Positions 60,001 through 63,000 of a DNA stretch of 64,000 bases are shown here, in pieces. The stretch covers positions 32,001-96,000 of the IMG/VR virus record IMGVR_UViG_649989997_000001; one strand, 5' to 3'. Position numbers: made by a program. Position 1 is the stretch's first letter. Each line of letters opens with the position of its first letter. The DNA comes from a virus (lineage: Duplodnaviria; Caudoviricetes).

Positions 60001-63000
60001 GATTTTCTTGCTGGTGTCCTTGGCATACCATTCGTTGATGATATTGATGAAGGGCGTAAAATCGCTGTCCTGCTGATTGGCACTGTCCACGCCGTTGTTG
60101 ACGGCAATGAAGCGTATGCCCGCATCCGGGAAAAACATCTCCGTATAATAGCCCACCCGGAGATAGTTGCGCCCCAAACGGCTCATGTCCTTCACGATGA
60201 CCGTCCCTACTTGCCCGCGCTCCGCCTTTGCTATGAGTCGCTGCCAGTCGGGGCGGTCGAAATTCGTCCCGCTGTATCCGTCATCCACGAAGAACTCGCG
60301 ATTCCGAAACCCGTTGTCAACAGCGTATTTTTCGAGGATGGCTTTCTGATTGCGGATGCTGTTGGAATCGCCCTGCATCTCATCGTCCCGCGAGAGACGG
60401 CAATACAAGGCTGTGATTTTTTCACCGTTCTCCACGGCAGTTTGTGATTGTCTGCCCATGATATCCTCCTTTCCGACAATCTTCAAGTGGTACTTCATAT
60501 TCCCGTACTGCTGTGAAGAAGTCAAGCGGATTACGGCGAAATCGCCGAATCTTTCGCTAAATCCTCCGCATCCCGCAGGATGAGTTTTTGCACCTTGTCC
60601 ATTACGGTTTCCTTGGCCGTGTCGCTGATAATATCTTCTACAATATAGACGGTGTCCTGCGGATTGCGCTCTCTTGACTGTGTATTTGTCATTGCTTCCC
60701 CTCCCTTCCTTATTTGTGATAGCATCAAGGGTGTCACGTTTCGCTACGTCCTCTGACGACGCCCCCAGGGGGCGGTCAAATCTCTACAATCTTTTGCCGT
60801 GGTGACCGGCGCTGGGTCACGCGCACAAAAACGACAATTCAAACGGGGGATTAACCCGTCATAGAGATAAATAGCGGCTGTTGGAACGCAATACGGCGCA
60901 GTGCTGTCTCATATAAATCAAAGCCCTATCCTTCCTACCTGCCGAAAACAGATACAGCGGAGCAAATCGCTCCGCCGTACCCATAACCCCTTTATGCAGT
61001 TATCTTGAGTGCCTTGACAGCCTCCCTGCGCATGAGTCTGCCATCCACGAATTCCATGGCGAGATAACCGACTTGTCCGTGAAGCGCAAATTTCTCCTTG
61101 AGGGAGCGCACACGAACGGGAGAGCGATGAATCATCCAGTAGTAGCTGAAATCTCCGAAAAGCACAGGAAATTTCCCGCTCTCGGCGTTTGGCATCCCCT
61201 CACCGATAACCACAGGCTTGCCGAGAATGGTGGCCTTATCGCTGTTCCAGAGATAGGCTCCGCTATCATCCTTCATCGTGCGAAGGAAAAGAGCCGTATC
61301 ATCATTCATCAGCCATGTGCCTTTGCTGCGGTACTCCGGTTTCACCGATGCATACAGCTTGATAAACTCATCGAAGGACAGCTTCTTGGCAGTCGCACCG
61401 ACTTCCGCTCCTTTTTCGGCATGGAGAAGTCCTGTGGGCTTATTTGCCCCGTCACCGTTCAGAAAAGCATCGTCCTCGGCTTTGGCGAAGTTCTTGGCAA
61501 AGCGACGGGTAAGATGCTCCTCCATGTCGAAAGCGGCATCATGCACGAATTCCTCGGTCAATTTGACGAACACGGCAAGTTTATGGGAGTCCACCGGGTA
61601 TCTGGTAAAGTCATTCAAGCCGTCATAGAGCGGGATGACACTTCCTTCCGGTACCCAGTTAGCAAAATCGGCGCAGTCATGGGCAAAGATGCGGCTTGCC
61701 CCACCATAGAACTTCACCGTGGTGCAGAGGTTCTGCGAAATGCTCTCCTGCTTGATGAAATCGTCCATAGAGGAAGCGTCTTCGGCGGGAAGCGTATACG
61801 CCGATACAGGTTTCCCCTCCGCATGGTCGAGAACCATGCAGTTGTACGGCTCTTGGCGCATGGCGTTCCAGAAATTTTTACGGTAGTCGGACGTACCGAT
61901 GATATTGAAATTTGCAGACATAATCAAAATCCTCCCTTTTTCTTATCGCATACCCGGCAGGCATACAGCCCCAGTTCATGATCGTTCAGACAATGTCCCA
62001 CCTGCTTCAAGAGATTGCCGCACTTGGGGCATTCAATGTCATAAACCAATGCCATATCCAGTGTGTGGGAATTCTTGGCATGAAGACGATAGAAGCCGCG
62101 CACCTCGTTATACTCGTTGCGCACCAATTCACGCGTCATATAGAGATCGTAGATGCTGCGTGTGTGCTCCTCCGAGCAAAGATTGTTCTGCGGATGAAGG
62201 CGAGTGCCGTTCTTGACGGTAGGGATAAGGGGATAGTTTTGAGCGTGATGGAACATACAGTTCCTCCTTCCTGCTGCAAGCAAGGCAGCAATACAGCGGC
62301 AGACGCTTCTCATCTGTCGCGTTGACATTCGACTTATGATCTTGCTGTGGCGTTCCTGCCACACATTTCCGGATGAAGCATTTGAAAGAGCGTGTCTCTG
62401 TCCCCCTTCCCGGAGCGAATCAGCTCCTCGGAATAGCGGAGAAGTTCCTCTGCTACATCCCCGATGCTTCCGCGAGGAACATCGGAAACGGTCTTCACAA
62501 TGAGGCAAGCCGGCGCACTGTTTCCGTGCCACAGATAGAGCGTTGCCCTCTTGTTTTCCTTGCTCGTATGCACGCCGCTGATTTCCACATGGAAGCCGTT
62601 GCCGAAATCGCGGTAAATGACCCGCTCAAGGTCAATGGTGGCGATAATGTAATTCTTGCCCAAGGACTTGCACAAGTCCCGAAGCATACGGTCTCGTTTT
62701 GACATATATACAGCCTCCCTTAAGGGAATCGCTGATAAAATGAAGTCTGTCAGATTGGCGTAGATTTTTTCGTCCGAACAAGGAGGCAAACCGGACGCAT
62801 AGCCAAAGCTATGTGGAGGATTTGCCGACAAAGTTCGGGCAAAAAAGATGCGTCAAGATGATGCGGCTGAATTTATCAGTGCTTCCTTAAGATTTTCACT
62901 AGCGAAAATGCAGGTTTTCTCCGGCATGACAGCAGTCGGTGATTTGTTGTGACGGCGTGATTCTTCCCGTGCTTGCTGCGTGACAATGAAAAACACGCGC

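Follow-up and report, generated by a model that had tools for sequence, protein, structure and literature searches.

How can a mobile element that encodes no packaging machinery of its own come to be packaged? The question is raised by a 64,000-nt stretch of DNA, here called the window, which comprises positions 32001-96000 of a caudoviral record in IMG/VR (IMGVR_UViG_649989997_000001; 114,551 nt) and contains a prophage, prophage 1 (~3.6-32 kb of the window, genes on the minus strand), and part of a 13.7-kb satellite that is inserted in the tail-tube (major tail protein) gene of a second prophage, prophage B. No terS, terL, portal or HNH gene was found in the satellite in PHROGs and Pfam scans of all its open reading frames (ORFs) of at least 70 amino acids, and the sole HNH-like signal is a marginal one (E=1.5e-4) within a restriction-modification-linked protein of 322 amino acids. 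The satellite possesses its own integration and replication module, consisting of a serine recombinase with TnpW and a primase-helicase, together with a helper-like ~93-bp element in which a set of short boxes is exactly preserved. With a probability of roughly three in four (0.77), this element is the cos region of an HNH-dependent lineage of cos phages, and the satellite copy lets the terminase of a helper phage package the satellite.

A conserved element shared by the satellite and both prophages

The satellite segment 60762-60854, on the plus strand, matches the reverse complement of 19005-19098 in prophage 1 in two blocks, which are the longest two inverted repeats of the window. The first block (60762-60786 / 19073-19097) is 25 nt long, is 96% identical and reads CCCCC(T)AGGGGGCGGTCAAATCTCTA; the second (60804-60854 / 19005-19055) is 51 nt long, is 80% identical and holds GACCGG, CGCACAAAAACG and TTCAAACGGGG at equal spacing. 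The composite pattern GGCGGTCAAATCTCTA-N15-20-GACCGG-N10-16-CGCACAAAAACG-N4-TTCAAACGGGG, in which GGCGGTCAAATCTCTA is termed box A, occurs only twice in the window (60771-60848, plus strand; 19011-19088, minus strand) and gave 0.00 matches in 100 dinucleotide-preserving shuffles, and a profile of 66 copies recovers the satellite copy with an nhmmer E-value of 7e-20. These results bear out the original prediction that the satellite carries a copy of the prophage cos-region motif and that the boxes and their spacing are conserved while the spacers have diverged: the box A region is identical at 20 of 20 positions and the other boxes are exact, whereas the N17 spacer is unrelated (4/19 identical). 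Weak residual similarity (~60% identity by eye) extends ~30 nt past the boxes, over sequence that would correspond to the beginning of terS. The satellite copy lies 137 nt past the stop codon of a capsid homolog and, as had been noted, is inverted relative to gene direction, the satellite genes all being on the minus strand.

A third copy of the motif is present in prophage B, outside the window (contig 2862-2954, minus strand), between a RelB-type gene and terS, and its region is 93% identical to that of prophage 1 over 207 nt. The predicted placement of the motif between HNH and terS holds as to order in both prophages, but in prophage 1, where terS begins 17 nt past the motif, a RelB-family antitoxin gene on the opposite strand intervenes between HNH and the motif. 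Copies of this RelB insert that are 96-97% identical occupy the equal position in Selenomonas prophages.

Position of the motif in other phages

Box A (GGCGGTC, an optional N, then AAATCTCTA) is present in more than 102 IMG/VR contigs, and in ~85 of the 95 that were examined the motif lies between the stop codon of HNH and the start codon of terS; the remaining ~10 loci are chance 16-mers in coding DNA or belong to very distant phages. HNH, whose gene lies at about -350, ends ~0-20 nt before the motif, its stop codon often abutting it, the TerS homolog starts 100-290 nt after box A, and the motif ends 15-190 nt before the start of terS. The same HNH-motif-terS layout is found in four GenBank records of Candidatus (Ca.) Heliusvirales, and the lineage, with its P27-family TerS and HK97-type TerL, matches prophages of the Ca. 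Heliusvirales type in Firmicutes and Negativicutes. Phages with a non-homologous small terminase (L046, L054, L083) likewise have box A upstream of TerL, which suggests that it is read by TerL or HNH rather than by TerS.

Boxes B and C, which form the right part of the motif, occur in GTDB species genomes in 26 phage and 8 satellite contexts. Members of the clade of prophages 1 and B (TerS 96-98% identical, RelB insert kept) are found in Selenomonas and Centipeda genomes, so the host of the record is probably a Selenomonas relative. In the Selenomonas/Centipeda-type prophages L077, L157, L160 and L167, an insert of ~1 kb directly follows the motif (after ...GGGGTATTAAAGAATG), such that terS is moved ~1.1 kb downstream and the motif is intact. 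A megablast against INPHARED phages gave no match to the satellite region and, for prophage 1, only terL and portal matches at 70-77%. No genome deposited from physical ends was found among the hits of TerS by tblastn in phage records, all of which (33/33) are prophage- or metagenome-derived with terS internal; the Heliusvirales paper contains no cos or termini information, and a full-text search returned no paper with the box A sequence and no description of the satellite family.

Contig termini within the motif

Two linear IMG/VR records from different samples, G001 (32,780 nt) and G002 (42,258 nt), both end 19 nt past box A. In motif orientation, G001 terminates with HNH, box A and ...TATAGAC, and its opposite end starts with CGTTGCGCCAGTC..., followed after 62 nt by the start codon of a PF05119 TerS. 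When the two ends of G001 are joined, they align without gaps to uncut copies, and the terminus falls at the conserved (G/A)ACCGG(C/G)G box, between (G/A)AC and CGG(C/G)G, a position that corresponds to 60806/60807 in the satellite and to 19053/19052 in prophage 1. The probability that random linearisation would fall inside a 93-nt element is ~0.3% per contig, and falling on the same base twice would be far rarer. A contig from a metagenome-assembled genome (MAG), L178, starts 4 nt upstream of the aligned cut point, and exact-pattern scans for relatives whose sequence continues across the termini of G001 and G002 yielded those contigs only. Together, the termini constitute indirect but good evidence that virion DNA ends at GAC/CGG within the motif (the slash marks the cut), and the GACCGG box is the probable cleavage point.

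Retention of the motif in relatives of the satellite

A sister satellite (L107, also L184; 95-97% protein identity) carries the motif at the same place with two substitutions, keeping 86/88 positions, and adjoins a tail chaperone that is just 63% identical, that is, a diverged helper. A sample unbiased with respect to the motif was obtained by aligning seven capsid homologs, searching metagenome contigs by protein only and scanning the best 80 loci with nhmmer. Satellite-like loci, in which identity of the capsid homolog is 40% or more, portal and TerL are absent and TnpW, a serine recombinase and a primase are usually present, accounted for 71 of the 80, and 53 of them had enough flanking DNA to be evaluated. 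The motif lies no more than 700 nt from the capsid-homolog gene in 49 of these 53 loci (92%), and in two of the four negative loci it is present further away. Genuine phage capsid genes with portal and TerL upstream, recovered by the same search, have no motif nearby.

The layout varies among the 49 motif-bearing loci: the motif is downstream and inverted only, as here, in 25, upstream and co-oriented only in 11, on both sides in 8 and placed otherwise in 5. Box A, the ACGG cut box, CAAAAAC and TTCAAACGGGG are all kept in the consensus of 55 distinct satellite copies, and the motif persists in satellites whose capsid homologs are just 41-57% identical. Because it has long been retained on either side of the gene and in either orientation, the satellite motif behaves, as judged from its distribution, like a cis-acting DNA site and unlike the promoter or leader of one gene.

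Some relatives depart from the simple arrangement. Two near-full-length inverted copies flank the capsid-homolog gene in L194, L196, L198, L217, L221, L223, L225 and L250, and loss of one copy from such two-copy relatives would explain the two common layouts. An HNH gene of the element's own stands beside the motif in L222, L233 and L258, an HNH-cos-TerS-methyltransferase series is present in L247, and in the L108/L109 lineage a degenerate motif is followed by a P27-family terS of the element's own. Relatives with their own HNH or terS fill a gradient between cos piracy alone and partial autonomy in packaging.

Prophage 1, prophage B and the likely helper

Prophage 1 begins with genes for a DNA polymerase, a helicase-primase, an SNF2 helicase, an anti-repressor, a small sigma-like regulator (20223-20663) and HNH, continues with the opposite-strand RelB-type antitoxin, the motif, the P27-family TerS, a ParB-methyltransferase and TerL, and ends with portal, protease, capsid, adaptor and head closure, directly after which come a holin and two serine recombinases. 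Its replication, terminase, cos and head genes are intact, and no tail genes were found in it by gene annotation of the window or by comparison with prophage B. At the junction 7408-7418, the head-closure gene (7472-7810) adjoins the holin (6968-7369) and the two recombinases, a clean deletion, relative to prophage B, of ~9 kb of tail genes (plus the satellite). On this comparison prophage 1 derives from the prophage-B type by deletion of the tail genes, and it could be either a defective prophage or a tail-stealing, capsid-forming element.

The second element of the window (47-58.7 kb) has a homologous recombinase pair and holin, then tail genes up to the tape measure, and the chaperones (58034-58551) that flank the satellite. 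Self-comparison of the record shows that prophage B resumes beyond the satellite, where it encodes the N-terminal part of its major tail protein (contig 104412-104843) and has the head and terminase genes. The ends of the record overlap (1-754 against 113797-114551; 755 nt at 99.7% identity), and either prophage B wraps to the start of the record, which would then close into a circle of ~113.8 kb that contains the satellite, both prophages and host-like genes (NhaA, MFS), or a near-identical third prophage broke the assembly.

Prophage B is more likely to be the helper than prophage 1, because the satellite sits in prophage B and prophage 1 has no tail genes; the candidacy of prophage 1 is weakened by the same two observations. 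Either prophage could supply the terminase, since their TerS and TerL are 95-96% identical, as are their capsid proteins (HNH, 83%). Over the 49 nt right of the cut, the satellite is closest, among the phage copies sampled, to the clade of prophages 1 and B (80%, to prophage 1, and 76-78%). Five cases were compared in which a satellite shares a genome or record with one or more TerS-bearing prophages. Ranked by the cut box and the right half of the motif, the best phage copy found alongside the satellite was within the top 0-9% of ~80 phage copies; the cases are few and two of the five pairs are mutually related, and the match between the satellite site and its co-resident phage is only suggestive. 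Lineage-specific variants common to satellite and phage are, for example, GACCGG here and ACGGTGCGGGGTC in two Lachnospiraceae/Clostridiales MAGs.

Alternative explanations

The element might instead, or in addition, be a late-gene regulatory site, a promoter or leader that is read by the sigma-like late regulator and that satellites have copied for timing. The motif always precedes terS, the first gene of the packaging and head operon, by the 15-190 nt given above, a sigma-70 region-4-like regulator is located ~1 kb upstream in most loci, and the motif is upstream of the capsid homolog and co-oriented with it in 11+8 of the 53 satellites, tight linkage to that gene being in keeping with a regulatory role. 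Such a role is nevertheless unlikely, given that the sole copy in 25/49 motif-bearing satellites is downstream and points against the capsid homolog and all its neighbours, that box A is conserved ahead of differing downstream genes, that contig termini fall inside the motif, and that scans for sigma-70 promoters and terminators around both window copies found nothing in the motif. The element is even less plausible as a structured RNA, whether a riboswitch-like leader or a small RNA. Short hairpins can be drawn in single copies (for example ACGGG-GGATTAA-CCCGT at 60842-60858) but are missing from many others, prophage 1 included; for 66 non-identical copies RNAalifold returned -0.18 kcal/mol with four trivial pairs and 0 compensatory or covarying changes, and Rfam, run on the whole window at the gathering threshold, gave no match. 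This barely credible reading was dropped, and the invariant boxes at fixed spacing with free sequence between them point to protein-binding DNA.

Instead of serving in packaging, the motif might be the recognition or homing site of the adjacent HNH as a selfish nuclease, or a hotspot at which modules are exchanged. In most phages box A adjoins the stop codon of HNH, an HNH gene has been acquired beside the motif in the three satellite relatives named above, and nuclease genes reportedly lie at exchange boundaries, to go by the title of one paper. HNH proteins next to terS and terL are, however, an established packaging component of cos phages, as in HK97 (gp74) and phi12/phiSLT; HNH and terS stand at opposite ends of one contig, which is what cos-cut virion DNA should show; and most satellites keep the site without any HNH, all of which makes homing very unlikely. 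It is highly improbable, finally, that the copy in the satellite has no function and was left behind by an earlier recombination with a phage, as a piece of the HNH-terS junction taken along by chance: the weak similarity just beyond the motif does suggest descent from a phage HNH-cos-terS segment, but the flanks have decayed while the four boxes are exact, the motif is kept across capsid homologs that are 41-57% identical, and the sister satellite retains it nearly unchanged. An attP site of the adjacent serine recombinase was also considered and rejected, as the whole motif rather than half-sites is present and motif-bearing phages occur with no recombinase nearby.

Several observations weigh against the cos interpretation itself. 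The termini are those of two assembled contigs and one near miss, not of mapped virion ends, and the ends of G001 abut without loss or duplication of a base, so that the expected 3' overhang is not visible. The fragments G003 (L023) and G004 (L046) start 16 and 15 nt before GGCGGTC, ~50 nt away from the G001/G002 terminus, and thus mark a second recurrent end position. Tight linkage between the motif and the capsid homolog is not required by a pure cos model and would fit a regulatory site. Overall identity is just 72%, the 17-nt spacer of the satellite being unrelated to that of the helper, and the record may be wrapped around or chimeric, so that the three elements may not all reside in one cell. 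The interpretation of the element as a cos site, as originally proposed, is supported by its position between HNH and terS, the lack of an RNA fold or promoter in the scans described, the contig ends, the satellite relatives and the terminase-free satellite.

Proposed mechanism

The data support the position of the cut and the pattern of conservation only, and it is by analogy that we infer protein binding, cleavage chemistry and the direction of packaging. Excision by the serine recombinase and replication from the primase and origin would produce concatemers or circles that present the cos site. Helper TerS would bind the A-tract/TCAAA boxes B and C right of the cut, a presumed cosB-like region by comparison with lambda, HK97 and phi12, and TerL together with HNH would cut at GAC/CGG, at the position indicated by the contig termini. 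Across the cut from these boxes, the near-palindrome and box A may have the role of lambda cosQ or that of the left part of cosN. DNA would then be translocated rightwards on the plus strand, with the capsid-homolog end entering first and the recombinase end last, until the next cos is reached, where box A, across the cut, would act in termination. The orientation of the site relative to the satellite genes would be irrelevant for a cis-acting DNA site of this kind. The capsid homolog, at 311 amino acids compared with 391 for the phage capsid protein, probably fits the capsid to a genome about one quarter of the length of the helper's (13.7 kb compared with ~57 kb), as proposed from SaPIbov5 Ccm.

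Features of the window and class of the satellite

The coordinates of the motif copies and of the genes discussed above are listed in Table 1. Past the capsid homolog, the satellite contains two ORFs of unknown function and then a primase-helicase of 764 amino acids (phrog_1829) that runs off the window. With a helper-like cos sequence with exact boxes, its own recombinase and replication genes and no terminase, portal or HNH, the satellite shows these three properties of a cos-type, SaPIbov5-like satellite. Phage-inducible chromosomal islands (PICIs) in the strict sense are characterized by a tyrosine integrase, a Stl-like master repressor, their gene order and a chromosomal att site, and the satellite falls outside this definition, given its serine recombinase and its insertion in a tail gene of a prophage. 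It would work like a cos PICI, by analogy, but should not be filed as a PICI.

Table 1. Motif copies and associated genes in the window, with the basis of each assignment.
Feature	Position	Strand	Basis and remarks
Satellite copy of the cos-region motif, whole element	60762..60854	+	Repeats, composite pattern, nhmmer profile
Near-palindrome CCCCCAGGGGG and box A GGCGGTCAAATCTCTA	60762..60786	+	Genome right-end side of the predicted cut
GACCGG box, predicted cleavage 60806/60807 (GAC/CGG)	60804..60809	+	Ends of linear contigs G001 and G002
Boxes B and C (CGCACAAAAACG, N4, TTCAAACGGGGGATTAA)	60822..60854	+	A-tract / TCAAA repeats; in phages between cut and terS
Prophage 1 copy of the cos-region motif, predicted cut 19053/19052	19005..19098	-	Repeats, composite pattern, nhmmer
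Prophage 1 small terminase, P27 family	18427..18987	-	phrog_83 3e-27; PF05119 25.3 bits; 96% identical to prophage B TerS
Prophage 1 HNH endonuclease, packaging-associated type	19741..20097	-	phrog_144 5e-31; PF01844 2e-13
Prophage 1 RelB-family antitoxin, between HNH and motif	19106..19453	+	PF04221 2e-11
Prophage 1 large terminase	11970..13571	-	phrog_9 1e-189
Satellite large serine recombinase (Resolvase, Recombinase, Zn ribbon, DUF4368)	58783..60525	-	Pfam; phrog_95
Satellite TnpW-like small protein	60531..60737	-	PF14202 3e-07; start 25-70 nt from box A
Satellite capsid homolog, 311 amino acids, HK97 fold family	60992..61927	-	PF05065 2e-58; phrog_10

Several further features lie in or between these elements. 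An ORF of 98 amino acids (19422-19718, plus strand) follows the RelB-family gene in the interval between HNH and the motif and possibly encodes the toxin, and the right edge of prophage 1 encodes a NACHT/SNaCT14 protein of 868 amino acids (32216-34822). The inter-prophage region contains the host genes NhaA, a major facilitator superfamily transporter and DUF389, and also encodes a TNT-domain (NAD-glycohydrolase toxin) protein of 204 amino acids (43990-44604). A repeat family of 164-175 nt has four direct copies (42416-42590, 44741-44916, 46900-46971 and 62715-62890), the last of which is within the satellite, between a 165-amino-acid ORF and the primase, at the presumed origin; the other three are host-side, just left of prophage B, and the first and last copies are 96% identical.

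Significance

Piracy of cos by satellites is already established in staphylococci and enterobacteria, and its occurrence here was to be expected; the novelty lies in where it is found and how far it extends. Few gut and oral phage lineages are as widespread as the Ca. Heliusvirales-like cos phages, and the motif provides a candidate cos site, with a predicted GAC/CGG cut, for this abundant uncultured lineage. It also marks a large satellite family in gut, oral and bioreactor anaerobes that present satellite finders, directed at tyrosine-integrase PICIs, P4, phage-inducible chromosomal island-like elements (PLE) and capsid-forming PICIs (cf-PICIs), would miss. Used together, a motif profile and the short capsid homolog could help to find such satellites and to pair them with helpers, and for helper-dependent delivery of DNA into anaerobes that are difficult to manipulate, the 93-bp site offers a candidate cis element.

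A broader scheme is possible but doubtful, in which one ~93-bp site is the shared packaging signal of phages and satellites, two-copy members included, and three tiers of element coexist: prophage B with tails, tail-less prophage 1 with heads and terminase, and the satellite with neither, the same cos being present in all. If the scheme were true, an undescribed family of large-serine-recombinase satellites, with a capsid homolog and cos and sometimes their own HNH or terS, would parasitise Ca. Heliusvirales-like phages, and members with two inverted cos sites flanking the capsid homolog might package bidirectionally or flip that gene.

Comparison with known systems

The arrangement of the element recalls the cosQ-cosN-cosB order of lambda and the gp74 system of HK97, with a conserved box before the cut, the cut in the centre and an A-tract-rich region before the small-terminase gene, and on a circular map HNH falls at one end of the genome and terS at the other. 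There is no sequence similarity, however, and the element spans ~93 bp here compared with ~200 bp in lambda. P4 likewise carries the cos of its helper, P2, and is packaged by the helper terminase into reduced capsids, but it employs the external scaffold Sid instead of a capsid homolog, has a tyrosine integrase and belongs to another phage lineage.

Closer parallels are found among the PICIs. The helper-embedded PICI (HE-PICI) 11capE, located in prophage 50icd, shares 258 bp with its helper at 90% identity at the cos position (PMC10111431). It lies inside one of its helper's late genes, as does the satellite described here, and 11capE and EcCICFT073 are both satellites without terS that are presumed to use helper cos packaging (PMC10111431). 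Both are enterobacterial and have tyrosine integrases, whereas the shared sequence here is confined to separate boxes in a 93-bp stretch whose spacer is unrelated, and the site has the inverse orientation.

The closest known analogue is SaPIbov5, a satellite that carries the cos of phi12 and the capsid homolog Ccm (PMC5052747). SaPIbov5, whose helpers are phi12 and phiSLT, and the present satellite both lack terS and terL and both copy the helper cos, and in both an HK97-fold capsid homolog with a shortened N-terminal part is located near cos (PMC5052747). The helper in each case is an HNH-dependent cos phage with a P27-family TerS. The two differ in that the present satellite has a large serine recombinase of the DUF4368 type with a TnpW-like partner and no tyrosine integrase, lies within the tail-tube gene of its helper, and belongs to a family whose hosts are Selenomonas-like Negativicutes and Clostridia. 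Its capsid homolog is 38% identical to the capsid protein of the helper, compared with 19% for Ccm.

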